Assembly: GCA_021734945.1 (NCBI GenBank)
Contig: JAIPIA010000002.1
Span: forward strand, 194,829-258,828
Origin: Minisyncoccota bacterium
Lineage (GTDB): Bacteria > Patescibacteriota > Minisyncoccia > Phycocordibacterales > CAIZLB01
Reading direction: 5' to 3'
DNA length: 64,000 nucleotides
The notes under the pieces are model-generated. The model was not told where the DNA came from. It made no database searches and was given only the letters and a program-made list of their open reading frames with translations. Of this stretch, positions 28,667-45,591 are shown one piece after another. A program made the position numbers and the translations under genes. The number at the start of each line of letters is the position of its first letter. Within the stretch, counting starts at the first letter, position 1.

Positions 28667-29485
28667 TTATTCTAGTGCTCCCAAAAACACTTTTTTAAAT
28701 ATTCCGCTATCTACTATATCTTGTCCTTTCCCTTCTGCCACAACCTTTCCCTTATCAAGTACATAAGCTCGATCTACAATTGGTAAAAGAGATTTTAGAT
28801 TATGTTCAACGACGACTATTGCCATACCTTTTTTCTGATTGATTTCGTGAATTTTTTCAAAAACTTCTTGTACTACTTTTGGAGCAAGCCCGAGTGATGG
28901 TTCGTCGAGAAGAAGTATTCGAGGGTCTGTTATGAGACCTCGTGCAATAGCAACCATTTGTTGTTGTCCACCAGAAAGCTCTCGTGACTTTTGCTTGAGT
29001 TTAGAACGCAATGCAGGAAAAAGACCAAGAACCTCTTCGACTCGTTCTTTTAGAACACTTTTATCTTTGAGTGTGATACCACCAATTTCCAAATTTTCTT
29101 TTACAGTCAAATTTCCAAATACACGCTTCCCTTGTGGAACAAGGGTAATACCCATAGGCACCATATGATGAGGCTGACGTAATTCCTCACTGATTTTATT
29201 TTGTCGCCAATAAACACCGCTATCAGTATTACCGTTATTTTTGCGATTAAGATTTTCTAAACTTTTTTCTAAATTTTCATGATGTTCACTCGAGACAATA
29301 GGAGCAAGACCAAAAATTGCTTTAAGGATAGTAGACTTACCAGCGCCATTTGGACCCATAAGAGCAACAACCTCACCCTCTTTGAAATGAACATTCACGG
29401 AATCTAGAGCCTTTACTCCGCCATAGGTAACACTCACATTTTTGAGCTCGATGAGAGTTTCACTTTCGTTAGAACTTTTAGTCAT
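28667..29485 (-). CDS. livF: Branched-chain amino acid ABC transporter ATP-binding protein LivF-like, with a ~30-aa insertion after Walker A
   Basis: GPNGAGKST, LSGGQQQMVAIARGL, LLLDEPSLGLAP. Extra segment SSEHHENLEKSLENLNRKNNGNTDSG. Confidence 0.65.
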   Translation of the reverse strand: MTKSSNESETLIELKNVSVTYGGVKALDSVNVHFKEGEVVALMGPNGAGKSTILKAIFGLAPIVSSEHHENLEKSLENLNRKNNGNTDSGVYWRQNKISEELRQPHHMVPMGITLVPQGKRVFGNLTVKENLEIGGITLKDKSVLKERVEEVLGLFPALRSKLKQKSRELSGGQQQMVAIARGLITDPRILLLDEPSLGLAPKVVQEVFEKIHEINQKKGMAIVVVEHNLKSLLPIVDRAYVLDKGKVVAEGKGQDIVDSGIFKKVFLGALE

Positions 29486-29582
29486 ATAGATTTAATACCC
29501 TAAGTATACAATAAAAGATACTCTATCCCATGGCACCTGTACAAAACATCACCTCAGAGTATACTTCGATTCTAGATACCCT

Positions 29583-30251
29583 ATGGTATTCCCTTGTCAG
29601 AAAATCAGCTCACATCCACCCTTCAGTCACCCCCCCCACATCAACTCAGTACCTAATAGTCCTATGACAACAATCACACTCACCCCCGAACAGGTTTCAT
29701 TAAACCTGTTCTATTTCGGCATTACGTTCCTCCTTCTCGGCTCAATCGCCCGCAGGTGGGCTGAACTCAAGAAGGTCAGATTCGGCGTCATGCAAGTACC
29801 TCCCATTGACGGAAGACACGGCAAGCTTGAAAAAGCTCTCATGTATCCACTCAAAATAATTGGCTATGTCCTCGCAGTAAGCGCGATTTGGGTCCATGTG
29901 TCGTACACCCCTATTACGTACGGACTTCTCATCTCTTACGTCCTAGTCATCTGTGTCTACGTTGGAATACCATTCTGCTTTAAACCGGACAAAGACTTTT
30001 CGGTCAAAGACAATTGGCAAATTCAAAGAGAAAGATTGATTGCTGCAAGAGGAATGTACGCAATCACAATTCTTTTTGTTCCAACTTCGATTTTTGGGAA
30101 TTGGTGTTTCGGAAGCTTTGTACTCCTCTCTGTTTTTTTGTATGAGGTATTCGTTTTCTCAAACAAAGAACAAAAAAACTGGGAGGAATACGCCGATTTC
30201 GACATCGATCACTCAGAAGAGATTCCTCGGCCAACACCATCGACAGAGTGA
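29583..30251 (+). CDS. Polytopic membrane protein on GC-rich islet 2; N-terminal region contains a poly-C (8-9 nt) tract
   Basis: ORF-track frame encodes ...SHPPH... across the C-run. An alternative start MTTITLTPEQ lies just downstream. Four or five TM helices. GC well above the flanks. Confidence 0.4.
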   Translation: MVFPCQKISSHPPFSHPPHINSVPNSPMTTITLTPEQVSLNLFYFGITFLLLGSIARRWAELKKVRFGVMQVPPIDGRHGKLEKALMYPLKIIGYVLAVSAIWVHVSYTPITYGLLISYVLVICVYVGIPFCFKPDKDFSVKDNWQIQRERLIAARGMYAITILFVPTSIFGNWCFGSFVLLSVFLYEVFVFSNKEQKNWEEYADFDIDHSEEIPRPTPSTE

Positions 30252-30265
30252 CCCCCGTCTGTCTG

Positions 30266-30302
30266 CTTCGCGCCGCCCTACTCCAAGGGCGGCGCTTTTT
30301 TT
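30266..30302 (+). terminator. GC-rich rho-independent terminator of islet 2
   Basis: GCGCCGCCCtactccaaGGGCGGCGC followed by tttttttc. Confidence 0.6.
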
Positions 30303-30319
30303 CTTAGACTGAGTACAAA

Positions 30320-30637
30320 TTAAATAACAACAGCAGTACCACTCACATTCACCATCAACATCCCTCCATGTGAGCCAACAGTTTCATAATCGAGATCAAC
30401 ACCAACGACAGCGTTTGCACCAAGAGCTGCAGCATTTTGCATAATTTCTGCAAGCGCTGCTTCACGAGCTTTTTTCAATTCACCTTCATACATTCCAGAA
30501 CGTCCACCAAAGAAGTCAGTGAATCCTGCAAATATGTCTTTTACAACATTTGCACCCATAATAACCTCTCCTGTTACAAGACCTTTATATTCTTTGATTG
30601 GCTTACCCTCAATAGTATTTGTTGTTGTGATTATCAT
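30320..30637 (-). CDS. YbjQ/UPF0145 (DUF74) family protein
   Basis: [48 protein letters not shown]...[13 protein letters not shown]. The ORF-track 5' extension was discarded. Confidence 0.6.
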
Positions 30638-30756
30638 ATTTTCATTATACCAATATATGAGCACTCTATAAATAGTAATGACATCAATCAAGAAAACGCT
30701 GACAGAGTTACCTGTCAGCGTCGAATTTATCACTTCTATATTACTTATATTTTGGT

Positions 30757-31683
30757 TTACCGATGTCGCTCGATCCATTGAACAATTTCCTTCACCCTAC
30801 TTTCGTGAGCAAGTATCTCTATGTAATCTTTCTGCACGACCTTCAAAGGAAGCTGCGGATTGAATTCATGGATTTCAAGGGTTTGAGGATTCAGCTTGAG
30901 ATGTTTGATTCCCAAAGCTTTATTCATACCGATGATTGGAGTGTTGTCCCAAGGAGTATCGAAACCATTTGGTCGTATGACCAACATACCGATTTCACCT
31001 TTCCACAGACGAGCGACCGTGATGCCAATACTACCGCTTGTAACCTCCATGTCTTTAAACACTCCTCCTTTCTTTTTACGAACCATCTTCCGTAAGACGG
31101 CTGGATAATCGTCAGGGGGATTCGTAAGAAGTACATACATCTCACCCAATGGAGTTTTGGTGTCAGGCTGAAGCAAACTCTTCACTCCAAAACGAGTACG
31201 TGTCGGAGGAAGTCCTTGTGCAAATTGGTATATCTCACCTGTGTTAACGTCCCCGATGCATACTGCGTCAACCTTACCTTTATTAACATGTGCGAGCATA
31301 GTACCCACACCAGTCGACTGTCTCCGGCCAAAAGCTCTTGTTCCATCGATTGGATCGTCAGTAAAGTAATCGCCGAGAGCAAAGCCTTTTTTAGGTTTAA
31401 GCATCAAAGCCTTTTCTTCACCAATGAGACCTACATTTGGATTCCACTTTAGAATCTCATTAACATGGTACTTCTGGACCTTGAGATCGCCACTTGTTAC
31501 CAAGTCAGCATCCACACCATTGTAGTGCAACTTAACAATCCGACTGAAATGAGCAGCTTCTTTTTGTGCAATCTTTATTGCTTTAGTGACAATTCGAAGC
31601 ATGAACTCATCAAGTTTTTCCTTCTGAACGTGAGTCCGAGGAATCCTTATATTTTTGCTTGCCTTTATATTGTGTCTTTTCAT
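30757..31683 (-). CDS. Inositol monophosphatase / FBPase-family (IMPase-like) protein
   Basis: DPIDGT metal-binding motif ([12 protein letters not shown]). LIGEEKA. Start set at internal Met MKRHNIK. Confidence 0.55.
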
Positions 31684-31896
31684 GGTATTTCTCTTTCCTT
31701 TTTGTTGTTTTGTACTGATCTGACTACAGTATGTTCGGAAAAAGTCATGTACGCTGAAAAAACACTCACTTATGTACACTTAATTTTGGAATAACCATTT
31801 AAAGCTTGTTTTATATTGTTTTTTTAGATAATATAAGTGTACAAAAATTAGTACAGTTTAATTAAAAATAAGTAAATATATACTAATAATAATTTC

Positions 31897-32625
31897 ATGA
31901 AAAAAACTAACGGTACTTCTACATTTTTAAAACAACTAGGTCTGACTGACGCAGAAATAAAAGTTTATACTTCTCTCTTAAGCATAGAAGAGTCATTAAT
32001 TGTAGATATTACGAAGACGACAGACCTGTACCGACCAGCAGTATACAAAGCAATCGAAGGTTTAAAAGAAAAAGGCTTGATAAGGATTTCATCAAAAGGA
32101 AAAAGACAAACTTACACAGCAGAGGCGCCAGATAGATTAGAAATACTTTTTAAAAACTTTGAGCAAACTTTTTTTAATAATATTGAGGACTTACATCAAA
32201 CATATGAGACAAGTAAAACAAAGCTAAATGTGTCTATGGCTGAAGGTGAAGATGCTATTACAGACGCATATAGTGATGTTATTCATTCGCTTAATAAAGG
32301 TGAGACTTACTATAGATATAGTTCTCTACATAATTTCCTAAAGAAAAAATATATTCCAAAAGATTATGAATATCTTAGAGATAAAAAAGGACTTGAGAGA
32401 TTAATAATAACTGGCAAGAAGACACCACACCAAAAACTTTTAGGGAGAAGTATTAAAATTATTCCGCCTGAATTTGATTTATTTCAAGATGAAATCAATG
32501 TAATTTTATACAAAGATAAAGTAGCGATTATTGACTACCCCTCAAAAACAACTATGACAATCAAGCATGCAAAATTTGCAGAATTTCAAAAGAAATTATT
32601 TAAACTGCTTTATTCAAAATTATAA
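31897..32625 (+). CDS. TrmB-family wHTH transcriptional regulator (paralog 2)
   Basis: LKQLGLTDAEIKVYTSLLSIEESLIVDITKTTDLYRPAVYKAIEGLKEKGLIRI. Confidence 0.6.
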   Translation: MKKTNGTSTFLKQLGLTDAEIKVYTSLLSIEESLIVDITKTTDLYRPAVYKAIEGLKEKGLIRISSKGKRQTYTAEAPDRLEILFKNFEQTFFNNIEDLHQTYETSKTKLNVSMAEGEDAITDAYSDVIHSLNKGETYYRYSSLHNFLKKKYIPKDYEYLRDKKGLERLIITGKKTPHQKLLGRSIKIIPPEFDLFQDEINVILYKDKVAIIDYPSKTTMTIKHAKFAEFQKKLFKLLYSKL

Positions 32626-32640
32626 TCTTTCCCTTAAAAT

Positions 32641-33443
32641 CTACTCCCCCAAATAAGCCTCTACCACATCATGTCGAGCTAGGACCTCATGAACAGGACC
32701 CTCTGCAAGTAATTCCCCACTATCCATCACAATAACTCTATCTGAAAGTTCTCGTATCAAATCCATATTATGTTCAATTAAAACAATAGTTGCACCCTCT
32801 CTTCGTAATTCTTTCATTATCTCAGATACGAGTTTAACCATTTCAGGGAAAAGTCCAGCATACGGTTCATCAAAAAATATTATCTGTGCTTTACCAATTT
32901 CTCGCATAGCGAGTACGCGTGCAATCTCCAAAAGCTTACGTTGACCATATGAAAGATTCACCGCTAACTTATCACGAAATTGCCAAATACCAACTCGATG
33001 CAGAACCTTCTCGGCGATAGCCAAGGATATCCTCTATGTTTCTCGAAAATCCCCTTAAACCAACCTCGACATGTTGTAACGACAAGAATATTATCGAGCA
33101 CTGTCATTTGTTCAAATAAACGCACCTCTTGAAACGTTCGTGTAATTCCATAGACAGGCATGTCACTTGCATTCACTCGCTTTAATCCAACCTTGCCAGC
33201 TACCACTATTTCGCCAGATGTTACGGGAATAAGACCTGTCAGGACATTCACCAATGTAGATTTTCCTGAACCATTTGGACCAATAACACCAGTAATTTTC
33301 CCCTCCTCAAAATGAATAGATAGATCGTGAATTGCCCTCACAGTTTCAAACTGTTTTGTTAATGTGTGCGTTTTGAGGGCTGGAGTTGTTGTTTCTGTAG
33401 TAGTCATGTAGTTTCGCTGATATAGTATATCAAATAAAGCCAT
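32641..33443 (-). pseudogene. livG: Frameshifted LivG-like ABC ATPase
   Basis: Walker A/Q-loop part (GPNGSGKST...TFQEVRLF...DNILVV) lies in ORF 32964..33443. Signature/Walker B/H-loop part (LSYGQRKLLEIARVL...FFDEPYAGL...LIEHNM) lies in ORF 32641..33024. The two overlap in different frames. Confidence 0.55.
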
Positions 33444-33725
33444 GTCAAAACCAACTCATAAAAAGATAACCCGCAGTCATACAAGCGCCATTGGAAAAGC
33501 CGAGGAGGTTGTTGCTCTTATACAAAAGATACCTGCTGTGACAAAAATATCACTGGGCATCATCAAGCATATAGGTGTCGGTAAACCAACTGTAAAATTC
33601 CATGTAATTACAGGTGGATGCAAAGCAGTCATACGTGGAAATATTTCTATTCAAGAGATATTTGTCTACACAAAAGAAGTTGAGTTTGTGCAGAATAAGA
33701 TTAAGGGTTGTTTTAAGTAATGAAA

Positions 33726-34898
33726 CTACTTAACAATCTCAAACTTTGAACCCCTTACCTCCTTCACATATATAGGTACCTCCTTACTTAGATCACCATT
33801 CTGATCAAAACCAAAGTAACCCGTAAGTGTAACTGAAGCAGTATCCCCTTTCAAAACACATTCTTTCAATCCTTCTCCTATTTTAGAAGAGCAAGTTTTA
33901 TAATTATTTGATAGTTTATTTATCAAATCATATGCATAAGCACCGTATTGTTGAGGCTCACGACCATTAAACTTAGCCTTATATTCTTTACAGTATTGTT
34001 CAGTAGCACTATTTGATTCACATGAAAATGGAACTGCGGTAACCACAACTCCCTCATTTACGCCTTTAGTAATTTTCAAAAATTCATCACTATCTATACC
34101 TGAAAAACCAGCAACTAAACCTTTAAAGCCTAGTTCTCGAATACTTTTAATAACAGGACCTGCTGTTTTATCTACCCCCAGAACATAAATACTATCTGGT
34201 TTCGAGCTCAAAACTTTTGTCACAATTGTATTATATTCAACATCTTTTTTATAACCTTCTGTGTCAACGACCACTCCTCCACGAGAGGTAAAGTCTTCTG
34301 CAAATTGTTTTGTACCTGTAGTTAAAGTATCACTGCCAGAATCATATATGACTGCGACTTTATTTAGTTTTTCACCGTACATTGATGATCTAGACGCAAG
34401 AAATTCACTCATACGAGTTACCTCCCGTGTAATAGAAGGTTGTAGTGTAAGCGCAAAATCATCCTTACCCATCAACATAGGAGTAGCTGAGATAGCAAAA
34501 AATGGCACTTTAGATCTTTCTGAGACCGCAGACATTGCTATATTCACAGTGCTTCCTGGACCTGTAATAACAGCTTGTACCTTTTTATTTTGGATTAAAT
34601 TTTGAATTGCAGATATTCCCTTTTGTGGTTCACTAGCAGAATCTTCAATCCAAATACTTACAGAGTTGCCAACTTTTTCTTGGGCAAGTGCAATAGCGTT
34701 TTGTATGTCCTCACTTATTCCAGCAAAATTTCCAGTAATAGGAAGAACTACACCGATTTTTATTTGATTTGGATTAATCTGACTGCTGATTTGGTTATTA
34801 TGTTTGAAGTCACCTACTTCATAAATTCCCCATACCAGTACAAGCAGTGCGAGCGAAACATATATTGTTTTTTTATACATAGACATATTTAGAAACAT
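33726..34898 (-). CDS. LivJ/LivK-family periplasmic substrate-binding protein (Peripla_BP_6)
   Basis: Membrane anchor followed by IKIGVVLPITGNFAGISEDIQNAIALAQEKVG, typical of branched-chain amino acid/amide SBPs. Confidence 0.65.
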   Translation of the reverse strand: MFLNMSMYKKTIYVSLALLVLVWGIYEVGDFKHNNQISSQINPNQIKIGVVLPITGNFAGISEDIQNAIALAQEKVGNSVSIWIEDSASEPQKGISAIQNLIQNKKVQAVITGPGSTVNIAMSAVSERSKVPFFAISATPMLMGKDDFALTLQPSITREVTRMSEFLASRSSMYGEKLNKVAVIYDSGSDTLTTGTKQFAEDFTSRGGVVVDTEGYKKDVEYNTIVTKVLSSKPDSIYVLGVDKTAGPVIKSIRELGFKGLVAGFSGIDSDEFLKITKGVNEGVVVTAVPFSCESNSATEQYCKEYKAKFNGREPQQYGAYAYDLINKLSNNYKTCSSKIGEGLKECVLKGDTASVTLTGYFGFDQNGDLSKEVPIYVKEVRGSKFEIVK

Positions 34899-35087
34899 TT
34901 AATTAATTTTTAATCGAATTAGCAGAATTCCAATAGTCTAGTCTTATAAGCGTCTATAAGCCATACTTTTAGTTATATATGTATAGTAATTGCAAAATAT
35001 CCTTATTTGTATTAGTATTAAGCCTGTATAAATAACGCCGTAAAAGTCGGCATATATGTAAATTAAGTCTCAAATTAACTAAATCAT

Positions 35088-35849
35088 ATGTCTACACATC
35101 AACATAATCCCCTTCAGTCTTTGATTCAGTACGGCCTAACAGAGCGACAAGCCAAGGTATATATGGTCTGTCTAGAGTTTGGTGTTGCTTCAATCCAGCA
35201 GATCAGCAAGCGGCTACAGGTCGCACGGAGTTCATGTGAGGCTACACTTGGACAGCTCCAAGCAAAAGGCTTTATATCTGTTCACAAAAATAAGACAGTT
35301 AGAAAATATTCACCAGAAGATCCAAAACACGTACTCAAAAGTGCTGAGCAGAAGGTAAAGGCACTGTCCTCCTCCCTTCCTGATCTCACTGGTATATTTT
35401 TAAAAAATCGAACAATACCATCAGTTCGAATGTATGAAGGTAAAAATGGATTATGGTCAGTACTCGAAGAAATACTATCCGAGGCTAAAATTTTGTATGG
35501 ATTTGGTTCAGCAGATGCATTATTTGATACTATCGGTGAAACATTTCCAGAGTTTCGAAGACAGCGTATCCAAAAGAAAATATTAATTAAAATTATTTTA
35601 AAGGATAGTGTAAAAGCAAGACAACGACAAGAAGCTGGACCAAGTGAACTTCGAGACGTACGTATTATTAAGGATACAGGTAATTTTGCTAGTCTTATGT
35701 TTATGTGGAATTCTAAGATTGCTTCCTTTTCACTTGGAGACGAAATTGTAGCTGTAATAATTGAGAGTAAGGAAATCGCAGAGGGACAAATGGCTATGTT
35801 CAACTTTACATGGAATGGTTTGCCCGCGCATAGAGCTACGAATGTGTAA
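35088..35849 (+). CDS. TrmB-family wHTH transcriptional regulator (paralog 3)
   Basis: LIQYGLTERQAKVYMVCLEFGVASIQQISKRLQVARSSCEATLGQLQAKGFISV. Confidence 0.6.
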   Translation: MSTHQHNPLQSLIQYGLTERQAKVYMVCLEFGVASIQQISKRLQVARSSCEATLGQLQAKGFISVHKNKTVRKYSPEDPKHVLKSAEQKVKALSSSLPDLTGIFLKNRTIPSVRMYEGKNGLWSVLEEILSEAKILYGFGSADALFDTIGETFPEFRRQRIQKKILIKIILKDSVKARQRQEAGPSELRDVRIIKDTGNFASLMFMWNSKIASFSLGDEIVAVIIESKEIAEGQMAMFNFTWNGLPAHRATNV

Positions 35850-35923
35850 CCACACATTTTAAACGTGCGGGGAATTTTTAATATAAATTTCCCATCAATT
35901 TTTTATAAAATTCCCAAGATTCT

Positions 35924-36790
35924 CTAAAGCTTAAACTCCCCCAACATACCCTGTGGTCTATAAAGCATAAGAGCAATTAGAAGTCCGCCATACACAACCT
36001 GTCTCATTTGCGCAGCTATATCTGTTGGAAAACCAACGAACCGAAGAATTTCTGGCAAAAGGATAAGGAATAAGGCACCTAGAACAGCACCACGAACATT
36101 TGAAAGTCCTCCAAGAATAATCATTGCAAGTATAAAGATTGATTCGTTGAGTGTGAACGTAGATGGATCAATAAAAGTAATGTATGAAGCAAAGAGTGAA
36201 CCACCAATAGCTGCCATTCCTGCAGAAATAACAAAGATGACCAACTTGTACGTTTTTGTATTGTAACCAAATACACTTATAGCTTTTTCATCTTCACGAA
36301 TAGCTTTGAGGACACGACCAAACGATGAATTCACTATAAATCGGGCGATTCCATATACAATAAGCATCATTACAATAGCTAGAACTAAAAATTGTAGAGT
36401 AGATGAGAATGTATATCCAAAGATTTCAGGCTTCCCTATTCCTGGTATACCAAGAGGACCACGAGTTAAATCCTGCCAATTTAAAAATATACTGAAGACA
36501 ATAATGTTGAATCCGAATGATACCAATGCATAATAGTCATCTTTAAATCGTGCAAGTACGAAACCAATGAGAAGGGCGCATAGCATTGATACGACTATGC
36601 CTACCAGTACCGAAGTAAAAAAATTGAAACCATATACAGTCATAAGGATAGCTGTTGCATATGCACCGAAGCCATAAAATGCTGCGTGAGTTACAGAGAG
36701 GAGTCCTGTATAACCAACTACGAGATCAAGCGAGATAGCTAGACCAGCGTAGATAGTGAAGAGTACAGCGAGGTGATAAAGGTATTCCAT
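35924..36790 (-). CDS. livM: Branched-chain amino acid ABC transporter permease LivM-like
   Basis: GYTGLLSVTHAAFYGFGAYATAIL and the C-terminal conserved loop. Confidence 0.7.
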   Translation of the reverse strand: MEYLYHLAVLFTIYAGLAISLDLVVGYTGLLSVTHAAFYGFGAYATAILMTVYGFNFFTSVLVGIVVSMLCALLIGFVLARFKDDYYALVSFGFNIIVFSIFLNWQDLTRGPLGIPGIGKPEIFGYTFSSTLQFLVLAIVMMLIVYGIARFIVNSSFGRVLKAIREDEKAISVFGYNTKTYKLVIFVISAGMAAIGGSLFASYITFIDPSTFTLNESIFILAMIILGGLSNVRGAVLGALFLILLPEILRFVGFPTDIAAQMRQVVYGGLLIALMLYRPQGMLGEFKL

Positions 36791-37389: not shown

Positions 37390-38526
37390 CTAAATACTCA
37401 CCAATTTACCTCCTCTCACCTCTTTCATCATAATTGCCGTACTACTTGAGACTACACCACCAATAGAATCAAACTTAATTGGACCGTATGTTTGCGTATC
37501 AAATTTTGTACTTAGCATATAAGCATTCAAGTCTTCGGCAGTATGAGGAGCGGGGTTATCTTTTAAATACTTTGCCAATACGTAAACAGTATCGTACGTA
37601 TTAATAGCACTAAACATAGGTTCTACACCAAATCTAGTTTTATACTTAGCAACAAAATCTGCTTTTGGATCTGAAGGTACATAGTATTTCGCTCCCTCAA
37701 CCCATTTTGCATCTACTTTTTTAGCTTGAATACTTTGTTCCAGAAATTCATCGGCAAATAGAGCAATATCCTTTTTAGTTAATTCATTCCATCTTTTTGG
37801 AAAATCTACTGAAAGCTTTTCATCATACGCACCAAAAAATACAGCATCAGGATTTGCACTTTGAACTTTAGAAATAACTGTTCTTACATCAGAACCGCTA
37901 TTCATAAACTCAGATCCAACAATTTTTATTCCCCTATTTTCAACCTCTTTTTTCAAAAATTGCACAAGGGTCGAATAATAAGAATCATTTTGAGTAACTA
38001 TATATAGTGTTTTTACACCAGATTTAATCATTTCATCTATTGTCACATTTGCTTTTGAAGATGTTCTGTACCAAAGTGAAAATACATTCTTATGGTTCTT
38101 GGGAATATTTACTGACTCAATTGCGGCATCTTGTGATATGAGTGGAATATTCTCTGACACAACAGACTCTGAACCCTGATATGAATCAAGCCACGTAATC
38201 ATTACAGCATTTACTTTATCTACATTTACAAGCTTTGACATCGCGTTCACAGAATCTTTAGAAGTACTCTTCATGTCTTCAATTACGATTTCAAGCTTCT
38301 TTCCATCAATACCACCTTTTGCATTTATCTCATCCTGAGCAAGTAAAATAGCGTTTCGTGAAGCCTCACCCCAGGCTGATGCATCGCCCGTAAGACCAAG
38401 TGCCGCACCAATTTTAAAAGAAGACACCGTTTGATTATTAGTATTTATACGGTACTTTTCGTTATATTTTGACAGCACCAACAATAAGCACACCAAAACA
38501 ATCAATGTAATAATTACTTTTTTCAT
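37390..38526 (-). CDS. LivJ-family periplasmic substrate-binding protein
   Basis: Signal anchor followed by FKIGAALGLTGDASAWGEASRNAILLAQDEINAKGGIDGKKLEIVIED. Confidence 0.65.
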   Translation of the reverse strand: MKKVIITLIVLVCLLLVLSKYNEKYRINTNNQTVSSFKIGAALGLTGDASAWGEASRNAILLAQDEINAKGGIDGKKLEIVIEDMKSTSKDSVNAMSKLVNVDKVNAVMITWLDSYQGSESVVSENIPLISQDAAIESVNIPKNHKNVFSLWYRTSSKANVTIDEMIKSGVKTLYIVTQNDSYYSTLVQFLKKEVENRGIKIVGSEFMNSGSDVRTVISKVQSANPDAVFFGAYDEKLSVDFPKRWNELTKKDIALFADEFLEQSIQAKKVDAKWVEGAKYYVPSDPKADFVAKYKTRFGVEPMFSAINTYDTVYVLAKYLKDNPAPHTAEDLNAYMLSTKFDTQTYGPIKFDSIGGVVSSSTAIMMKEVRGGKLVSI

Positions 38527-38676
38527 ATTGTATATTCTATACTTTTGAGGATTTTAGTAAACAGCTTGTCGGACCACCATAGGTCTCTCTGCCCTCACTA
38601 TCACAATTTTAATCAAATATAAAAGGCATATCCTACAAGGATATGCCTTTTATACCTTTTCACATGCAACTTTATA

Positions 38677-39759
38677 TTATTGTATTTCGCTCAGAACTCC
38701 TCCTTTGATTATTTTCATACCAAACTCAGGCTGGCGTAATCCTTCTTTGTTGAATGATATATTACCAGTAACGCCCTTAAGAGATAAAGATTTCATATTA
38801 TTACTCATAACCTTTGAGTCAGCGTCATATCCGGCCACAAACGTATTGAATGCGTCATATCCGTATCCGGCAAATATAGATGGTTCTGCACCGTATCTGG
38901 CTTTGTATTTTTCAACAAAGACAGGATCCATTTTTGATTTAAGTGACATTACATATGAACCATCAAGCACCGATAGGTCTGGAAACGCACCTGTATATTC
39001 GACACTGTCATAGATAAGATCAAATACGATTGTGGGCTTGTTTGGATATTTTTGAATTTCTTTTAACACTCTCGCTCCATTTGATGAATATGCACTAAGA
39101 ACAACAATCTTTGGGTTATGAGCCATTGCCTTTGCAACTATAGTGGCATATTCTTTTTGATTTTGATCGAGTTTAAATTCTTCAACAAAAGGATTACTGT
39201 ATCCTTTCTTTATGTTGCTCACAAACTTCATCACCGTTGAATCATTTGTATAAAACAACACAGTATCATTTCCATTACTCATTTTCTTTACAAATTCCCC
39301 CGTTGCAACTTCAGGCGCATCTTGCGTTGGGTAGACCTGGTACACAGTGTCGTCAGCAGGATCTCTATCTTGTTCACCAAGTTGAATCACCGGTAACTTC
39401 GAGTTTGTTACGGAATCATACACAATACTAATAGTTGGGCTACTCAAGTTAATTAATCCATCTATTTTATTGAATGACACTAATTTATTGTATGCACTAA
39501 GTCCTTTTTTACTTTCACTTCCATCATCTTCAACACTGAGAGAGATTTGAGCATCAGGATTACTCTTAGTATATTCTTCATGAGCAAACTTAATACCTTG
39601 TGAAAAAGCCTGTCCGAGTGCAGCAAAGGCACCTGTTTCACTCGATATAACTCCTACACTCAACTTCGTCGGTTCGATTTTGTTATTCTTGTTAGCAAAT
39701 GAAAATACTATTACTAGTACAATCAATACACCTAAGAAACCATATGCAATCTTTTTCAT
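38677..39759 (-). CDS. LivJ-family periplasmic substrate-binding protein (divergent paralog)
   Basis: Signal anchor followed by LSVGVISSETGAFAALGQAFSQGIKFAHEEY. Confidence 0.55.
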   Translation of the reverse strand: MKKIAYGFLGVLIVLVIVFSFANKNNKIEPTKLSVGVISSETGAFAALGQAFSQGIKFAHEEYTKSNPDAQISLSVEDDGSESKKGLSAYNKLVSFNKIDGLINLSSPTISIVYDSVTNSKLPVIQLGEQDRDPADDTVYQVYPTQDAPEVATGEFVKKMSNGNDTVLFYTNDSTVMKFVSNIKKGYSNPFVEEFKLDQNQKEYATIVAKAMAHNPKIVVLSAYSSNGARVLKEIQKYPNKPTIVFDLIYDSVEYTGAFPDLSVLDGSYVMSLKSKMDPVFVEKYKARYGAEPSIFAGYGYDAFNTFVAGYDADSKVMSNNMKSLSLKGVTGNISFNKEGLRQPEFGMKIIKGGVLSEIQ

Positions 39760-39942
39760 TTAAGTAATTTATTATGTTATTTTTAACGTACAACATTATT
39801 CAATCAATTTGTTATATGGTCAATTTTGATAGGTATCGTTGTCGTTATTAAGTATTAATATATTGTTTTAAATAAGGTTTAAATCTAAATATTGATAAAA
39901 TCGCCAGTTTTATTGACTAATTTGCCATTTAGTTTACTATAA

Positions 39943-40692
39943 GTGTATATGAATAAATTGGTAGAGTCGCTTAAAACACTAGGATATTCGGATAAAGAGG
40001 CTTTGACATACGTCTCCCTGCTCGAACTTGGTCGCGCAACAGCATATTCTGTATCCGAAAAGTCAGGTCTCAAGAAACCAACTACTCACGTCATTCTGGG
40101 TGAACTCCTCAAAAAAGGTGCAGTTATTACAATTCCAGGCGCTAAAAAGAAGATATTTACAGTAAGATCTCCTGAGGAGCTATTCGCACGAGCCGAGGAA
40201 AGTTTAATAAGAGCAAAAAAGTCCCTTCCAGATTTATTGTCTATGGCTTTAGAGAGTCGTTCTGAATTTAAGACTCTCTACTACGAAGGAATCCAAGGAC
40301 TAAAAGATTCTTTGTATTATAAAATGAAGACAGTCAAAAAGAAGGAGCTTATAGGTTTTTATGCACTCGTAACAAAGGATGTAGATCCTGTAGTACTACG
40401 CATGTTTGATGTTTGGGGTAAAGATTTAAAGGAAAATTCAATAAGAATGAGAGGTTTCACTCCAGAACATTCCTCGACTGAAAGATACAAACCTGCGTCT
40501 AATGATCCATATCGAGATTTGCGTTTTCTTCCTTTAGAAAATTATTCTTCTGAAATATCTATAGAGGCACTCGATGATTTTGTTAGAATTACAGATATTA
40601 GACATCTCCAAATAGTAATTATAGACAATCCACATATCGCTAGGACACTTAGACAAATATTTGAAATGATGTGGCAAGTACTTCCAAGATAG
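39943..40692 (+). CDS. TrmB-family wHTH transcriptional regulator (paralog 4)
   Basis: LKTLGYSDKEALTYVSLLELGRATAYSVSEKSGLKKPTTHVILGELLKKGAVI. Confidence 0.6.
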   Translation: MYMNKLVESLKTLGYSDKEALTYVSLLELGRATAYSVSEKSGLKKPTTHVILGELLKKGAVITIPGAKKKIFTVRSPEELFARAEESLIRAKKSLPDLLSMALESRSEFKTLYYEGIQGLKDSLYYKMKTVKKKELIGFYALVTKDVDPVVLRMFDVWGKDLKENSIRMRGFTPEHSSTERYKPASNDPYRDLRFLPLENYSSEISIEALDDFVRITDIRHLQIVIIDNPHIARTLRQIFEMMWQVLPR

Positions 40693-40735
40693 ACTTTGAA
40701 GTAATTTAATTTAAACTATCCGAACTTTAATCTAA

Positions 40736-41665
40736 CTAAGCAAGCTTCAACGCAGGAATAATCTGCTTCTTTCGAGATACGATTCCAGGAAGCACTTCTG
40801 TATCACCATCAACTTGAACGCCAAAAGATGCACTGATAACACCTTTCAAGAAATCATTGTATGTGAACACTGTAGCCTCTTCTCGTAGAATATCTACCAC
40901 AAAGAAAAGTACATCGTCGATATCACCATCTTGAGCAATAACTTCACCAATAGCTTTTACAATCCCCTCTTTTCGGACAAGTACTGATGCTGGATCTGTA
41001 GTTTCAACAACAGAAACTCGGATGTTTTTATCACCTACTTCGAACTTCTTACTATCGAGGTGAATAAGCCCTATGTCTGTAAAATCTGAAACATCTGACT
41101 TTGCTTTGAACATTTCATTTGCATACTCTGTGATATTTAGACCAAGTCGAGCCGCCAACTTTTCCGCAATTGCTTTATCATGTGGAGTTGTTGTAGGAGA
41201 ACGAAACTCAAGTGTGTCAGAGAGAATACATGAAAGCATTACTCCAGCGATATCTTCTGGCATAGTTTCAGCGTGAGTACCCATGAGGTCGTGCATAACT
41301 GTAGCAGTTGATGCCACTGGTCGAATAGTCATCTCAATAGGACCTTTTGTCATGAGACCTCCTATAAGCTTGTGATGATCTATGATCTGGAGAATATCTG
41401 CTTCATTCACCCCAGAGAGGAGTTCTTGGGGATTGTTTGTATCTACAATCACCACTTTGTCTTCTGCATCTACTTTTTCGAGAAGTGTAGGTTCAGTCTG
41501 TCTCCATCGTCCGAGAACAAACTTTGTCTCCTTGTTAAGTTCACCAAGTACATATGCCTCTGCTTTGTGAGTAGTGTGAGTGTTGAGGTACCAAGCCCAA
41601 ATAATAGCGCAGCTAGTAGCGTCTGTGTCAGGTGAAATGTGCCCAAAAACTTTGATTGTTGTCAT
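40736..41665 (-). CDS. ppaC: Manganese-dependent inorganic pyrophosphatase, family II (DHH-DHHA2)
   Basis: MTTIKVFGHISPDTDATSCAI, VIVDTNNPQEL, IIDHHKL, DHHA2 region. Own sigma70-like promoter (TTGTCA-16-TATGAT) at 41676-41703. Confidence 0.7.
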   Translation of the reverse strand: MTTIKVFGHISPDTDATSCAIIWAWYLNTHTTHKAEAYVLGELNKETKFVLGRWRQTEPTLLEKVDAEDKVVIVDTNNPQELLSGVNEADILQIIDHHKLIGGLMTKGPIEMTIRPVASTATVMHDLMGTHAETMPEDIAGVMLSCILSDTLEFRSPTTTPHDKAIAEKLAARLGLNITEYANEMFKAKSDVSDFTDIGLIHLDSKKFEVGDKNIRVSVVETTDPASVLVRKEGIVKAIGEVIAQDGDIDDVLFFVVDILREEATVFTYNDFLKGVISASFGVQVDGDTEVLPGIVSRKKQIIPALKLA

Positions 41666-42127
41666 AATGCGTACATCATACAAAAATTTGGTCGTTTGAC
41701 AAAGGGGTTTTGTATTCAAACCCTTAGGTACCACTCCCATAATTAACCTGATTAAAGCATCTTTGATTGACCTAAATTCTCCAGATTCAACACTCCTTAT
41801 TTTCCTAAGAAATCTTTTAGTACTTATCAGACGTATTTGTGAAAGTAGAATGGAGTATGTATCACCTTTAAAATAAATCGTATAATAGAAAATTCCTTCT
41901 TTAACTTTAGTAGTAATTGGCAGGACTAAACAAACTCTCTTATTAAACTTTTTTAAGACTAAAACTGGTCTCTCATATAATGAATTGACACCATTCTGTT
42001 CATCTCCAACATTTAGACCCAAAGAGCACCACCATATTTCTCTTTCTAAGATGGCATGTTTTAATTCACCTTCAATTACTTTATCAATTTCTATTTTTAG
42101 TCTATTCCAATCATTATAATCCTTCAT
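41666..42127 (-). CDS. MazF/PemK-like toxin-fold domain (paralog 2), in frame with ppaC with no intervening stop
   Basis: REIWWCSLGLNVGDEQNGVNSLYERPVLVLKKFNKRVCLVLPITT is homologous to 36956..37324. The ORF 40736..42127 reads through into ppaC. Confidence 0.45.
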
Positions 42128-42247
42128 AGATACATATTTATATATTTAACCTACTGAATTTTTCATCAATATTTTATAAAAATACTTATACACCTATAAT
42201 TAGCGAAATATTTGACAAGAAATTATTTTTAAAATAATATGTATCTA

Positions 42248-42347
42248 CAAATGGGTTGTGTGTGAAGAATCACAACCGCCGGAGATAGTGTTCGTAAGGA
42301 CACTAATCGTATATTAAAGAGACCAGCAAAAACTGGTTTTTTTAATT
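42248..42347 (+). ncRNA. Candidate small RNA with three hairpins and an intrinsic terminator
   Basis: Promoter-like TTGACA(42213)-17-TAATAT. Hairpins GGTTGTG...CACAACC, AGTGT...ACACT, ACCAGcaaaaaCTGGT followed by ttttttt. Confidence 0.25.
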
Positions 42348-42390
42348 GGGCAGACTAGTTGATAATATCAGCCACTATAAACATAATTCC

Positions 42391-43311
42391 CTATCTCTTC
42401 AAAATTCCCTGTGGACGTACAAGTAAAAATACGATCAATAATGTGAAGGCAATGGCATCTTTCCATTCACCTGATATCTTCCAAATACCAAAGTTCTCAA
42501 CAAAGCCGAGCAAGAATGCACCAAGTACTCCACCGTATACGTTTCCGATTCCACCAATAATAGAAGCAATAACACCCTTGAGCAGTAGTGCCATTCCCAT
42601 AGTTGGCTCAAGGCCTGTGTCATATCCGACGAACACACCAGCAAGCCCTGCAATAGCCGATCCAATTACGCAAACTATAGCAATTGTTTTTTCTGTATTG
42701 ATACCTACAATTTTAGCGACTTGTTCGTTATCACTAATAGCTTCAACAGATTTTCCAAAAAGCGAACGCTTTAAGTACACACCGAGCGCAATCATAATAA
42801 CGAATACTGAAATGATTATAGCAAGCTGGACCTGAGTAATAATTCCTCCAAAAACATTAAACGTAACAATATCCCCTGCTCCAGAACTGAGTGTTTGAAA
42901 TTGACTTGTAAAAAGGATTGCAAGAAAAGCCTGAAGACAAGTGAATGCACCAAGTGAAGCAACTAAAAAAACCATTTGTGAAGCTTTTCGTTCTCGAAGT
43001 TTTTTAAATAGGAAACGATTGAGTAACCAACCAACAGAAGCTGCAACAACAACGCCTATAATAGTAGTAACTATGATTCCTAAAGTACCAGAGTTAAAGA
43101 AATCTCCAAGAGGTTGTATCGAAGCACCCAAACCAGGAAGTTTCTTTGTAAGAAAATATACTGTGTAACCACCAATAGCGGCAACAACACCATGAGTTAA
43201 GTTAAAAAACTTTGTTGTTCCATATATAAGATTGAAACCAAGAGCAACAAGAGCATAGATAGCTCCCGCAATAAGACTATTCGCAATGAGTTGTGGGATT
43301 ATACTGTCCAT
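42391..43311 (-). CDS. livH: Branched-chain amino acid ABC transporter permease LivH-like
   Basis: AIYALVALGFNLIYGTTKFFNLTHG and the conserved C-terminal region. Confidence 0.7.
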   Translation of the reverse strand: MDSIIPQLIANSLIAGAIYALVALGFNLIYGTTKFFNLTHGVVAAIGGYTVYFLTKKLPGLGASIQPLGDFFNSGTLGIIVTTIIGVVVAASVGWLLNRFLFKKLRERKASQMVFLVASLGAFTCLQAFLAILFTSQFQTLSSGAGDIVTFNVFGGIITQVQLAIIISVFVIMIALGVYLKRSLFGKSVEAISDNEQVAKIVGINTEKTIAIVCVIGSAIAGLAGVFVGYDTGLEPTMGMALLLKGVIASIIGGIGNVYGGVLGAFLLGFVENFGIWKISGEWKDAIAFTLLIVFLLVRPQGILKR

Positions 43312-43313
43312 TT

Positions 43314-43553
43314 TTATTCCAATTCTTTTATAAATATAAATCTCGGACCTTTGTAATTGAGTTCAGGTTTATCTACACTCTCGATAAACATTTCTAATGG
43401 TCTTATATAAAGTTTAAAGTCCCCATACAGCGCCCGATATGCAACCATTTTTTCTTCAGTCTCTGTATGCATTCCAACGCCAATTACCTCATAAATCATC
43501 GACTTATCTTTGAAATGTTGATAAATTCCCCGCTTTAGAGTTTCATTATTCAT
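43314..43553 (-). CDS. DUF1653-domain protein
   Basis: YQHFKDKSMIYEVIGVGMHTETEEKMVAYRALYGDFKLYIRPLEMF. Confidence 0.5.
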   Translation of the reverse strand: MNNETLKRGIYQHFKDKSMIYEVIGVGMHTETEEKMVAYRALYGDFKLYIRPLEMFIESVDKPELNYKGPRFIFIKELE

Positions 43554-43565
43554 AGAGGTATTTTA

Positions 43566-43608
43566 CCACAAAACAAAACCGCCTATGCATTTCAGCTAGG
43601 TGGTTTTT
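43566..43608. repeat. Terminator-like repeated element, copy 1
   Basis: caaaaccGcctatgcatttcagctaggtggtttttt. Copy 2 at 44384..44430 shares ...tcagctaggtggtttt and the upstream aaaacc.cc. Confidence 0.4.
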
Positions 43609-43616
43609 TAATACAC

Positions 43617-44348
43617 CTACTTTTTAAGTAAGACAGCGAAAGGATGAACTATCTCCAACAAATGATCTCCATTTCGTTCAATGATTTCTTGTACAGCTGC
43701 AAACTCAGCATCTATACGAGCTTGATCAAGAGGTAACTCCTCCACTTCCGCAAAACCTACTTCAATAGCCATTCTTTTAACGTACTCCGCAGTAACAAAC
43801 TGATCTTCTGTAAAACCATTATTATACACAACAGTTCCATCAGGCTTTTGCATTTTATCGTAACCGAAGCTACTTATAAGAAATTGACCTGTTGGTTTTA
43901 AAACCCTATGTGCTTCCGCAAGTATTTGCTCAGCGCTTTTTTCAATAGGTGCATTTATAAGATTAATAGACAAAGCAAAAGCCACTGACTCATTTTTAAA
44001 AGGTGTATCTGTTACATCAGCAGTAACCGGCCTTACGACGGTTTCATTCTCTCTTCTTTGGTGATAAGGGTGAAGCATCCAACTTTCCAAACGTTCAACA
44101 GTGTCGTCAATAGGAATTAGAATTAATCCCCTATCTTCAAGCTGATGTGTATAAGAATGATCTTCAAGTACGTGAATATAGCCTGCACCAAGATCAAGCA
44201 CTGTATCACCCGCTTTCAAATCTGCGGCATCAAATATTTGTCCATATGTTTCTGGAGCGACAAAATCAGGGTGGTTAAGTATCTTTCCTTCAAGACCTTT
44301 AAGTATTTCTTTTTGATAGGGTTCAAATCCGTTAAGAGCTTCACTCAT
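43617..44348 (-). CDS. Class I SAM-dependent methyltransferase-like protein
   Basis: Motif I DTVLDLGAG. Remainder is atypical. Confidence 0.45.
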   Translation of the reverse strand: MSEALNGFEPYQKEILKGLEGKILNHPDFVAPETYGQIFDAADLKAGDTVLDLGAGYIHVLEDHSYTHQLEDRGLILIPIDDTVERLESWMLHPYHQRRENETVVRPVTADVTDTPFKNESVAFALSINLINAPIEKSAEQILAEAHRVLKPTGQFLISSFGYDKMQKPDGTVVYNNGFTEDQFVTAEYVKRMAIEVGFAEVEELPLDQARIDAEFAAVQEIIERNGDHLLEIVHPFAVLLKK

Positions 44349-44383
44349 ATGCTGTGATTATATCAGTTCGATTCCCTTTAGTC

Positions 44384-44430
44384 CTTAAACAACAAAACCA
44401 CCCAGACATTCTCAGCTAGGTGGTTTTGCA
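44384..44430. repeat. Terminator-like repeated element, copy 2
   Basis: caaaaccAcccagacattctcagctaggtggttttg. Stem CCACC/GGTGG flanked by A- and T-runs, so it can terminate in both directions. Confidence 0.4.
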
Positions 44431-44466
44431 TATTTTTCTCTGCGGTTTCTAGATAATTTTCTGACC

Positions 44467-45591
44467 CTAATCCTCAATCCTCACCGGTTTACCATTCTGT
44501 ATAATCTTTGTAACAGCCTTAGTCAAAACGAATCCATCTTTATCAATTTTCAAATGCCCTAGTGCTCCTTGGATATCTACATTATATAGAGCATCTTTGA
44601 TATTTGAACTTGAAACTTCTTTTCCAGGATTAGCTTTACTTGCTCGTTCAGCTGAATCAATAATCATCTTTGTGATGTCATATGCATTTGCTGTAGCAAT
44701 CACTTGTTCTTTTCCATACATATTTTTATATGCAGTTCTAAATTCATCAGATGAATCAGCAGCATTTACATACCAGTATCCTTCGAACAAATCTGGTCGA
44801 TCTGTAAGTTCAAAACCTTCAAGTGAAGTTAGTGGCTTTCCAATATTTGCATCTTTAAGTTGTTTTGAAAGAGTTTCAAGCTCTGGTGAAAATGCAATAG
44901 GTACATATATATCTGGATTTGTAGCTTTTGCTTTTGCAACAATTGTACGGAAATCAGTTGTTCCAAAGTTGAACACGTCTTTACTCACAATTTGAATATC
45001 TGTTCCCTGCACTTGTTTCTCAAGTTCATCAATCACAGCAGTAATACCTTGAATATTCGCACCAAACACAGCAACTTTCTTTATATGTCGCTTTTGCAAT
45101 TCCTCAATAAAGAGTCGCACTTCTTCAAATGGAGGTGTCCAATGTATGAAGTTGTAATCCCCTTTTGCAATATTTGGGTCTGAGGCAATACCCATGTGAA
45201 CGATTTGATTCTTTTCAGCAATAGGGTTTGCAATATTTCCAGCGGCTGACGCAAATGTCATGAGAGCGCTAACCTTATCTACTGAAATTAATTTGTTTAA
45301 TGCAGAGGCTGTTCTTTTCGGATCAAAACCATCGTCTTCCATTACAACCTTGTACGAGTTCTTTGAAGTCGGGTTTGCCTTTTCAAATTCATGAATAGCA
45401 AGTTCAGCACCATTTCTTATTCCTTCACCAGCAAAGGCCAAGCTACCTGAAAGCGGCCCAGAAATACCAATCTTAATCACCTGACCTGTAGAAGCAGTCT
45501 GACTAGTGCTATTTGATTTTGAATATGATGAGATACCCCAAACAGCTAGCAATACAGCGACTATTACAATAATAATTTTTGTTTTGTTCAT
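44467..45591 (-). CDS. LivJ-family periplasmic substrate-binding protein
   Basis: IKIGISGPLSGSLAFAGEGIRNGAELAIHEF. Confidence 0.65.
   Translation of the reverse strand: MNKTKIIIVIVAVLLAVWGISSYSKSNSTSQTASTGQVIKIGISGPLSGSLAFAGEGIRNGAELAIHEFEKANPTSKNSYKVVMEDDGFDPKRTASALNKLISVDKVSALMTFASAAGNIANPIAEKNQIVHMGIASDPNIAKGDYNFIHWTPPFEEVRLFIEELQKRHIKKVAVFGANIQGITAVIDELEKQVQGTDIQIVSKDVFNFGTTDFRTIVAKAKATNPDIYVPIAFSPELETLSKQLKDANIGKPLTSLEGFELTDRPDLFEGYWYVNAADSSDEFRTAYKNMYGKEQVIATANAYDITKMIIDSAERASKANPGKEVSSSNIKDALYNVDIQGALGHLKIDKDGFVLTKAVTKIIQNGKPVRIED

Follow-up and report, generated by a model that had tools for sequence, protein, structure and literature searches.

The HAAT-family importer locus described here lies in a 64-kb window, the whole stretch of DNA that was analyzed, from a metagenome-assembled genome (MAG) of Paceibacteria, within the candidate phyla radiation (CPR). 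All coordinates are positions in this window. The four core genes, encoding two permeases and two ATPases of an ATP-binding cassette (ABC) transporter, keep the order H-M-G-F on the minus strand and are spread across ∼15 kb, with genes for solute-binding proteins (SBPs) and TrmB-like regulators standing in the gaps between them. The reading that we favor, at a probability of roughly 0.7, is that of an importer that has kept its ancestral gene order while TrmB-like/SBP cassettes were built between its core genes, leaving one translocator with several separately regulated SBPs. To judge from the related loci compared below, this predicted multi-SBP HAAT importer, with regulator/SBP cassettes between core genes, is widespread in Paceibacteria.

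Identity and order of the translocator genes

Genes were identified from a listing of open reading frames (ORFs) and Pfam scans, and were placed in subfamilies with NCBIfam models and their equivalog cut-offs. The core genes are as follows.

42391–43311, minus strand: LivH-like permease, 306 amino acids (BPD_transp_2, 2e-41; best NCBIfam match LivH, below cut-off)
35924–36790, minus strand: LivM-like permease, 288 amino acids, MCF7865482.1 (BPD_transp_2, 8e-48; best NCBIfam match LivM)
32964–33443, minus strand: LivG-like ATPase, N-terminal fragment (N-terminal half of ABC_tran with Walker A and Q-loop; 20-codon out-of-frame tail)
32641–33024, minus strand: LivG-like ATPase, C-terminal fragment, 127 amino acids, MCF7865477.1 (LSYGQ signature, Walker B, H-loop and BCA_ABC_TP_C)
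28667–29485, minus strand: LivF-like ATPase, 272 amino acids, MCF7865472.1 (ABC_tran, 3e-28; best NCBIfam matches UrtE/LivF)

The two BPD_transp_2 (PF02653) permeases are distinct from one another, with a mutual identity of 25%. Among related loci, referred to here by number, the LivH-like permease is 78% identical to that of L001 and the LivM-like permease 89–90% identical to those of L001 and L002. The best NCBIfam match for the LivG-like ATPase is UrtD/LivG, and the UrtD and UrtE models score slightly above the LivG and LivF models. All four scores fall below the equivalog cut-offs (141 bits against 379 for LivH, 169 against 366 for LivM, 176 against 362 for LivG and 188 against 441 for LivF), so these are HAAT-family genes rather than literally the canonical liv genes of Escherichia coli, and the label “canonical” attached to them by the original prediction has to be given up. 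Of the components of a HAAT importer, both permease types and the cognate Peripla_BP_6 SBP (six genes) are present. Genes for a LivG-type and a LivF-type ATPase are there too, with complete motifs in LivF and in the conceptually restored LivG, but livG is split by a 1-nt deletion as sequenced. The same prediction had read an order of SBP, livH, livM, livG and livF on the minus strand, and the ORF listing and Pfam confirm all five genes at these positions.

Relatives were found with back-translated LivM patterns, which gave 45 Patescibacteria/Paceibacteria loci at 57%–90% identity; the outgroup set comprised 35 distant loci, mostly actinomycete and all non-CPR, at ∼30% identity. Without exception, the core genes found in each of the 45 Paceibacteria loci follow one another as H, M, G, F along a single strand. 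Compact SBP-H-M-G-F loci, with gaps of −4 to 15 nt, occur among these relatives (L038, L043, L022, L015, L009 and L006), and the same order recurs in the 35 outgroup loci, all of which are compact, with no insertions. Since compact versions are found both in relatives and in every outgroup locus, derivation of the window's layout from a compact SBP-H-M-G-F operon is supported by the sequence comparison. Coincidence, named at the outset as the alternative to a shared livJHMGF order, does not survive this comparison of orthologous loci.

Junction occupancy was counted in the 45 Paceibacteria loci together with three close relatives (L081–L083). Genes have been inserted at the H|M junction in 15 of 40 cases, at M|G in 20 of 41 and at G|F in 21 of 35, and these are mainly SBP (62) and TrmB-like (24) genes. 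SBP genes run in the direction of the core in 134 of 142 cases (94%), TrmB-like genes are divergently paired with an SBP gene in 48 of 58, and the gap from an SBP gene to the next core gene is at most 20 nt, or an overlap, in 15 of 47. The junctions of the window measure 5600 bp (H|M), 2480 bp (M|G) and 3478 bp (G|F) and have antisense genes inside them. Their sizes are at the high end and not unique, as H|M extends over 8.3 kb in L039 and M|G over 5.7 kb in L010.

Binding proteins and TrmB-like regulators

The six SBP genes and the seven TrmB-like genes of the locus are listed below.

44467–45591, minus strand: SBP4, in the “LivJ” position, with an N-terminal transmembrane (TM) anchor, divergent from TrmB4 (Peripla_BP_6, 7e-40)
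38677–39759, minus strand: SBP3, in the H|M junction, divergent from TrmB3 (Peripla_BP_6, 1e-28)
37390–38526, minus strand: SBP2, in the H|M junction (Peripla_BP_6, 8e-45; closest solved structure 4gnr)
33726–34898, minus strand: SBP1, in the M|G junction, divergent from TrmB2 (Peripla_BP_6, 9e-32)
46695–47852, minus strand: SBP5, the most LivJ/LivK-like, divergent from TrmB5 (Peripla_BP_6, 3e-55; E. coli LivK 1usg, 5e-30)
48846–50000, minus strand: SBP6, adjoining and divergent from TrmB6 (Peripla_BP_6, 2e-53)
31897–32625, plus strand: TrmB1, divergent from the IMPase-like and YbjQ genes (PF01978, 6e-13)
35088–35849, plus strand: TrmB2, divergent from SBP1 (PF01978, 8e-11)
39943–40692, plus strand: TrmB3, divergent from SBP3 (PF01978, 3e-12)
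45790–46644, plus strand: TrmB4, divergent from SBP4, with a predicted TrmBL2-like fold (PF01978; AlphaFold2 pLDDT 87.8; Foldseek 5bqt/5bpd, E 1e-13)
47980–48747, plus strand: TrmB5, divergent from SBP5 (PF01978, 4e-8)
50154–50957, plus strand: TrmB6, highly conserved (72%–88% identity in more than 120 clusters)
52279–53028, plus strand: TrmB7, divergent from an MBL-fold gene at 51081–51989 (Pfam scan)

The locus had been thought to extend over ∼17 kb. The spread layout is as described, and the locus itself is larger, as two further TrmB/SBP pairs and two TrmB-like genes carry it to about position 53 kb.

Each of the six SBPs opens with a single hydrophobic N-terminal anchor helix. Their pairwise identities of 23%–36% identify them as old paralogs. 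By structure matching SBP5 is closest to E. coli LivK/LivJ and SBP2 to other HAAT SBPs. The COG0683 SBPs of Rhodopseudomonas palustris mostly bind other amino acids, aromatic acids, fatty acids and dicarboxylates rather than Leu, Ile or Val (PMC3223731), and branched-chain amino acid specificity is therefore not to be assumed here.

The TrmB-like proteins share the PF01978 winged helix, found in the seven genes of the locus and in an eighth at 3318–4073, with E values from 3e-18 to 4e-8; the seven proteins of the locus are 21%–35% identical over their full length. The AlphaFold2 model of TrmB4 comprises a winged helix, a 36-residue helix (residues 79–114) and an α/β domain (residues 118–270) that resembles PLD-like folds. 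Its best matches in the PDB are to full-length TrmBL2, over ∼270 residues and at 16%–17% sequence identity. Pfam matched the TrmB-like proteins in their winged-helix DNA-binding region and nowhere else, and hence detected no counterpart of the sugar-binding C-terminal subdomain of TrmB.

The eighth TrmB-like gene, on the minus strand, diverges from a second SBP-dependent ABC importer within the window, made up of the following genes.

4276–5289: NMT1/THI5-type SBP
5249–6067: BPD_transp_1 permease
6067–7626: ABC ATPase fused to a second NMT1 domain

As this gene stands beside the SBP gene of the second importer, the placing of a TrmB-like gene next to an SBP gene is not limited to the HAAT locus.

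Pairs of regulator and SBP recur at different positions in the relatives. Pairs resembling TrmB4/SBP4 lie upstream of livH in L003, L004, L014 and L018, after livM in L034 and in inverted form in L041; those resembling TrmB3/SBP3 precede livH in L009 and L014 and occupy H|M in L039; the TrmB2/SBP1 and TrmB6/SBP6 pairs were each found in one relative. Regulator and SBP thus appear, from sequence comparison, to tend to be inherited together, at differing junctions in different genomes. Near relatives differ most plainly at M|G, which is empty in L001 (LivM 89% identical), holds only DUF2103 in L002 (90%), and contains TrmB-SBP-DUF2103 in the window and in L082, which shares the whole arrangement LivM-TrmB-SBP-DUF2103-LivG. 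These differences imply that cassette turnover is fast relative to divergence of the core. The original prediction had the SBP genes proliferating independently. Their multiplication is borne out; their independence is not, as they are ancient paralogs and, where an SBP gene is paired with a regulator, the two mostly move together as a divergent TrmB-like/SBP cassette.

Considered together, these observations are consistent with a model in which one LivH/LivM/LivG/LivF translocator would be shared by several anchored SBPs of differing specificity, six of them in the window, and each cassette would bring its own regulated promoter. Transcription of a core gene would start either at the promoter of the preceding SBP gene or at one belonging to the core gene itself. 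With the regulator genes running in the opposite direction, the former operon would be cut into several transcription units, with at least four on the minus strand. The first would run SBP4-methyltransferase-DUF1653-LivH-PemK/DHH; the second would begin with SBP3 and continue past a terminator-like hairpin to SBP2-PemK and then LivM; the third would hold SBP1 and then LivG; and the fourth the IMPase-like gene and YbjQ, with LivF and its downstream genes separate. The hairpin, a perfect 17-bp stem with a T-rich tail (38618–38654), lies directly after the SBP3 stop codon. Cassettes would be gained, lost and moved among junctions on a short evolutionary time scale, with the core held under strong purifying selection.

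A bolder version, which we consider possible and on balance doubtful, would make the HAAT operon of Paceibacteria a landing platform for mobile two-gene “sensor plus receptor” cassettes, each of a TrmBL2-like regulator and an SBP, which would come, go and change junctions around a fixed H-M-G-F, with each promoter also driving the next core gene. If this were true, a minimal-genome symbiont could retune its scavenging by swapping the cassettes that serve its single translocator; in the window's subclade, the exchange would take place in the gap between secY and adk within the ribosomal protein cluster. The result would be a modular, fast-changing uptake array of a kind not described for ABC importers.

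The extra SBPs might instead not feed this transporter at all, serving rather as sensors, surface receptors (in contact with a host or episymbiont, for instance) or partners of other translocators. The Peripla_BP_6/ANF_receptor fold is also used by receptors, as the Pfam names indicate, and the window does hold a second ABC importer that depends on an SBP and has a TrmB-like gene to itself. Against this stand the co-direction of 94% of SBP genes with the core, many of them abutting or overlapping the next core gene, the membership of all of the SBPs in the same family as the operon's own first gene, and the lack of a second BPD_transp_2 permease pair in the window. In addition, other ABC translocators are well known to draw on several SBPs each (Thomas 2010, as cited in PMC3223731). 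We therefore regard non-feeding SBPs as quite unlikely.

Several observations weigh against a shared translocator with separately regulated SBPs. The closest structural match of TrmB4 is TrmBL2, which binds DNA non-specifically, in the manner of a chromatin protein, and lacks a sugar-binding subdomain; effector binding by the TrmB-like proteins is plausible on the model, and the absence of that subdomain from the match makes effector sensing uncertain here. The orthologs of TrmB6 lie away from SBP genes in both genomes checked (L084 and L086), and the partners of TrmB1 and TrmB7 are an IMPase-like and an MBL-fold gene, respectively, so that not every TrmB-like gene is an SBP regulator. A search of the seven TrmB-divergent intergenic regions for a shared operator found none, only weak, imperfect AT-rich palindromes that differ from one region to the next. 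A scan of 27600–46800 for sigma-70 promoters and terminators found no excess of sites over shuffled sequence (promoter-like, 67 against 64; terminator-like, 12 against 10). Among the inserted genes, the methyltransferase, DUF1653, PemK-DHH, IMPase-like and YbjQ genes have no evident tie to transport. Finally, if the livG deletion is accepted as it stands, the importer of this population is inactive, and it may not work at all in this organism.

The adjacency of TrmB6 and SBP6 is probably incidental, and TrmB6 was dropped as a dedicated regulator of SBP6 on the ground that its orthologs occur in unrelated contexts. TrmB6 is unusually conserved for a CPR regulator while its neighborhoods vary, which suggests that it acts globally in Paceibacteria, perhaps on chromatin in the manner of TrmBL2 or in housekeeping.

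The livG deletion and constraint on the core

Two differences from related loci fall within the ATPase genes.

33025–33026, minus strand: site of a 1-nt deletion in livG, with loss of a His codon (“tat c^c ttg”; DNA alignment with L001, L002 and L003)
29222–29278, minus strand: in-frame insertion of 19 codons in livF, ENLEKSLENLNRKNNGNTD, between Walker A and the Q-loop (alignment with relatives)

The split of livG between two reading frames had been placed near 32964–33060, and it proves to be exactly one missing base. Where the window reads “tat c-c ttg gct atc”, the three aligned relatives read “tat cat ctt gcg ata” or an equivalent (Y-H-L-A-I). Restoring one base yields a full LivG with Walker A, Q-loop, LSYGQ signature, Walker B and H-loop, and the fragments carry no second lesion. 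In GenBank the halves are entered as two ordinary proteins, MCF7865478.1 (147 amino acids) and MCF7865477.1. Relatives and the GenBank call both point to ATG 33407 as the likely true start, which gives the 147-residue N-terminal fragment. The longest livG ORF (ATG 33443) and the antisense DUF2103 ORF (ATG 33442) overlap at their start codons, and a start at 33407 leaves only ∼34 bp between the two divergent genes.

An assembly error that restores an intact livG had been named as the finding that would overturn the split, and the assembly comparison does not bear it out. Logan contig SRR12088351_7463 (run SRR12088351) contains the same two ORFs and the identical deletion, with zero mismatches to the window across the 6.4 kb fetched. 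Because this independent assembly carries the same lesion, the loss of the base is probably genuine and of very recent date. A sequencing or consensus artefact, with the gene intact in the cell, would account for a single missing base with perfectly conserved flanks in a MAG, in a window where no other frame-broken gene is detectable, and the two assemblies may share the same reads. The deletion nevertheless appears in the products of two different pipelines, on contigs of 327,113 bp (GenBank) and 103,665 bp (Logan), and the missing base is outside any homopolymer of that base (context tatc^cttg), so this is not a typical indel error. We consider an artefact unlikely. A search of the JGI metagenome contigs for either form of the site, intact or lacking the base, gave 0 matches, and no intact conspecific allele was found, there being no LivG more than 91% identical in the protein collection.

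LivG could also work as two polypeptides, through re-initiation at TTG 33024, or be completed by ribosomal frameshifting. This TTG is the Leu codon straight after the lost His, the two ORFs together encode all residues but one, and an AGAGGA motif lies 5 nt upstream of it. Shine-Dalgarno-like motifs, however, precede just 2 of 38 start codons in the window and are absent from all ribosomal protein genes, and a TTG start is unique to this ORF among the 38 listed. The stretch bounded by the −1-frame and 0-frame stops contains no slippery heptamer of the form X XXY YYZ. The best 120 LivG homologs, with a top identity of 91%, are all single full-length proteins, and we know of no split nucleotide-binding domain in this ATPase family. 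A functional split LivG is thus highly improbable. Programmed −1 frameshifting was rejected because the heptamer is missing from the permitted window and the homologs are all single-frame, and Shine-Dalgarno-driven re-initiation of the C-terminal half because the motif is so rarely used here.

The LivF insertion had been estimated at ∼30 residues after Walker A. Its place is as predicted and its size is smaller: 19 residues are unique to this genome, lacking even from the closest relatives, and a further ∼6–9 are common to the window and its closest relatives and missing from more distant ones. The insertion falls where the aligned relatives already vary in length, and the LivF motifs are all intact.

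Constraint on the core was estimated from nonsynonymous and synonymous differences (pN and pS) relative to the closest relatives, L001 and L002, with pS saturated. LivH, LivM, LivG and LivF have pN of 0.06–0.15 against pS of 0.65–0.8. For LivH the values versus the closest relative are 0.14 and 0.65, and for LivM 0.06 and 0.67. The 5′ and 3′ halves of livG, compared with L002, have pN of 0.094 and 0.074 at a pS of ∼0.7, a pN/pS of ∼0.1. Constraint on SecY, Adk and Map is comparable. As the core genes are as constrained as these three, the substitution pattern indicates that they are under strong purifying selection and that the locus is not decaying; livG alone shows damage, from a single, very recent event.

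These values bear on the proposal, made in the original prediction, that the locus reflects decay or repurposing: an ancestral liv operon breaking down, with livG a pseudogene, LivF damaged and the other core genes relics or put to new use. CPR genomes are reduced, two assemblies agree on the livG frameshift, the 19-residue LivF insertion is unique to this genome, and genes unrelated to transport stand in the junctions. Set against this, LivH, LivM and LivF are complete in length and in their motifs, the LivF insertion preserves the reading frame and falls in a region of variable length, and both halves of livG remain constrained, with no second lesion. Dozens of relatives share the interleaved layout with LivG intact, and a layout common to so many relatives is not itself decay. 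With damage confined to livG and interleaving found across the lineage, decay is a very unlikely account of the locus, and we retain the model of a constrained core with cassettes between its genes.

Surroundings and comparison with known systems

The junctions hold other genes beside the SBPs and regulators. Pfam and ORF scans show that all those listed in the original prediction (methyltransferase, DUF1653, PemK, TrmB-like and SBP genes, IMPase-like, YbjQ and a GC-rich ORF) are real. The remaining features of the junctions and the boundaries of the block are as follows.

43617–44348, minus strand: methyltransferase, between SBP4 and LivH (Pfam)
43314–43553, minus strand: DUF1653, between SBP4 and LivH (Pfam)
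40736–42127, minus strand: PemK(MazF)-DHH-DHHA2 fusion, 463 amino acids, at H|M (Pfam)
36956–37324: stand-alone PemK, a paralog of the fusion domain (46% identity over 82 amino acids)
33442–33720, plus strand: DUF2103, antisense, directly upstream of livG (kept in L002, L081, L082, L083 and L088)
30757–31779, minus strand: IMPase-like gene, at G|F
30320–30778, minus strand: YbjQ, at G|F
29583–30251, plus strand: 222-residue membrane ORF, at G|F, followed by a GC-rich terminator-like hairpin
55070–56341, minus strand: secY, the upstream boundary of the block
27039–27647, minus strand: adk, downstream boundary
26138–26980, minus strand: map, downstream boundary

The stop codon of DUF1653 is 2 nt from the start of LivH, and neither DUF1653 nor the methyltransferase was found in the loci of relatives. 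Other insertions unrelated to transport are shared with close relatives, namely PemK-DHH at H|M (L001, where the ortholog is 81% identical), DUF2103 before livG (L002, L081 and L082) and YbjQ at G|F (L002 and L081); the G|F junction of L081 and L002 holds YbjQ and/or the ORF of unknown function. The association of PemK with DHH recurs in close relatives as separate or overlapping ORFs, or as DHH alone (L001 8484–9921; L081 5713–6642). The MazF/PemK domain, joined in the window to a DHH-DHHA2 phosphoesterase, is toxin-like; no antitoxin gene is evident. The stretch containing the 222-residue membrane ORF has a GC content of 0.45, against ∼0.36.

The locus lies within a 27.4-kb block (27648–55069) embedded between secY and adk-map of the ribosomal protein cluster. 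The genes for L22, S3, L16, L14, L5, S8, L6, L18, S5 and L15 are directly upstream of secY, with no L30 between S5 and L15. The same embedding of liv genes between secY and adk is seen in L001, L004 and L036, at only ∼8 kb, and in L006 the liv genes follow map. Straight after livF is a half-size MFS ORF (28015–28654, 187 amino acids, ∼6 TM helices), with a counterpart in L002 of 188 amino acids and 50% identity; rather than being a fragment, it may therefore represent a half-transporter that has been conserved. Just downstream of map, a gene for a VirD4/TraG-like type IV coupling protein of 1017 amino acids (22353–25406) is overlapped at its 3′ end, by ∼110 nt, by an NDK-domain ORF (21701–22462).

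No flanking repeats or mobile-element signatures were found around the cassettes. The repeats that are present reflect paralogy (Walker A, SBP5/SBP6), apart from one exact 20-nt direct repeat, AGAAATTATTTAAACTGCTT, at 32591–32610 (3′ end of TrmB1) and 53122–53141 (3′ end of a 2OG-Fe(II) oxygenase gene), 20.5 kb apart, which may have been left by recombination or have arisen by chance in AT-rich DNA. Between PemK and livM, a GC-rich 8-bp hairpin (CCCCGCTC...GAGCGGGG; 36894–36913) adjoins the best-scoring promoter-like site of the plus strand (36840–36867), and the two could mark a short antisense transcript. Nearly all genes of the window start with ATG after an AT-rich leader. Boxes of the −10 type at a fixed distance from the start codon, as in leaderless genes, precede 14 genes against 10.4 in shuffled sequence, with no positional peak; such boxes could have accounted for the way in which insertions are tolerated. 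Scans of the window for tRNA genes and against Rfam gave no match.

CPR (Patescibacteria) have tiny genomes with few regulators and almost no biosynthesis, and what they import defines their lifestyle. Here ∼20 kb of a genome that is probably smaller than 1 Mb is devoted to one translocator, six divergent SBPs and seven TrmB-like regulators. The recurrence of this design across Paceibacteria suggests that taking up nutrients through one common importer, fitted with exchangeable receptors under separate regulation, is a major adaptation of the group, and the ligands of the SBPs are concrete targets for cultivation work. A gene order that outlasts operon contiguity is relevant to operon-based prediction of function, and livG illustrates how a broken ATPase can go through an annotation pipeline unnoticed and be entered as two normal proteins. 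Full-text literature searches for TrmB together with Parcubacteria or Patescibacteria gave nothing, and no description of an interleaved operon architecture was found.

Among known systems, the window locus resembles E. coli LivJ/LivK-LivHMGF (HAAT, TC 3.A.1.4) in its component families and gene order, in the BCA_ABC_TP_C tail of the first ATPase, in the match of SBP5 to LivK/LivJ structures and, if the SBPs are indeed shared, in having more than one SBP per translocator. It differs in its LivM, of 288 amino acids against a model of 418 positions, in scores below the equivalog cut-offs, in its six TM-anchored SBPs and in a core whose genes are separated by 2.5–5.6 kb that include antisense regulators. 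HisJ/ArgT-HisQMP is a further importer with several SBPs.

ABC importers that use multiple or “orphan” SBPs are an established class, as presented by Thomas 2010 (“Homes for the orphans”) in its citation by PMC3223731. The window would share with them the use of one translocator by several SBPs of differing specificity. In these importers the additional SBP genes precede the operon or are found at other sites in the genome, whereas those of the window lie between the translocator genes, many with a dedicated divergent regulator. The COG0683 expansion of R. palustris (PMC3223731) is likewise a large set of divergent LivK-family SBPs. In contrast to the window, it belongs to a large-genome proteobacterium with periplasmic SBPs, and neither an interleaved layout nor TrmB-type regulators form part of that study's description.

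The regulators resemble archaeal TrmB/TrmBL2 (PDB 5bpd, 5bqt and 3qph) in their PF01978 winged helix, and the TrmB4 model has the winged helix, coiled-coil helix and α/β domain of TrmBL2. Unlike archaeal TrmB, the window proteins are bacterial (CPR), are ∼250 amino acids long, number eight paralogs in 64 kb and have no sugar-binding subdomain detectable by Pfam. The archaeal TrmB gene adjoins the genes of a trehalose/maltose SBP-dependent ABC importer, as the regulators of the window adjoin theirs.

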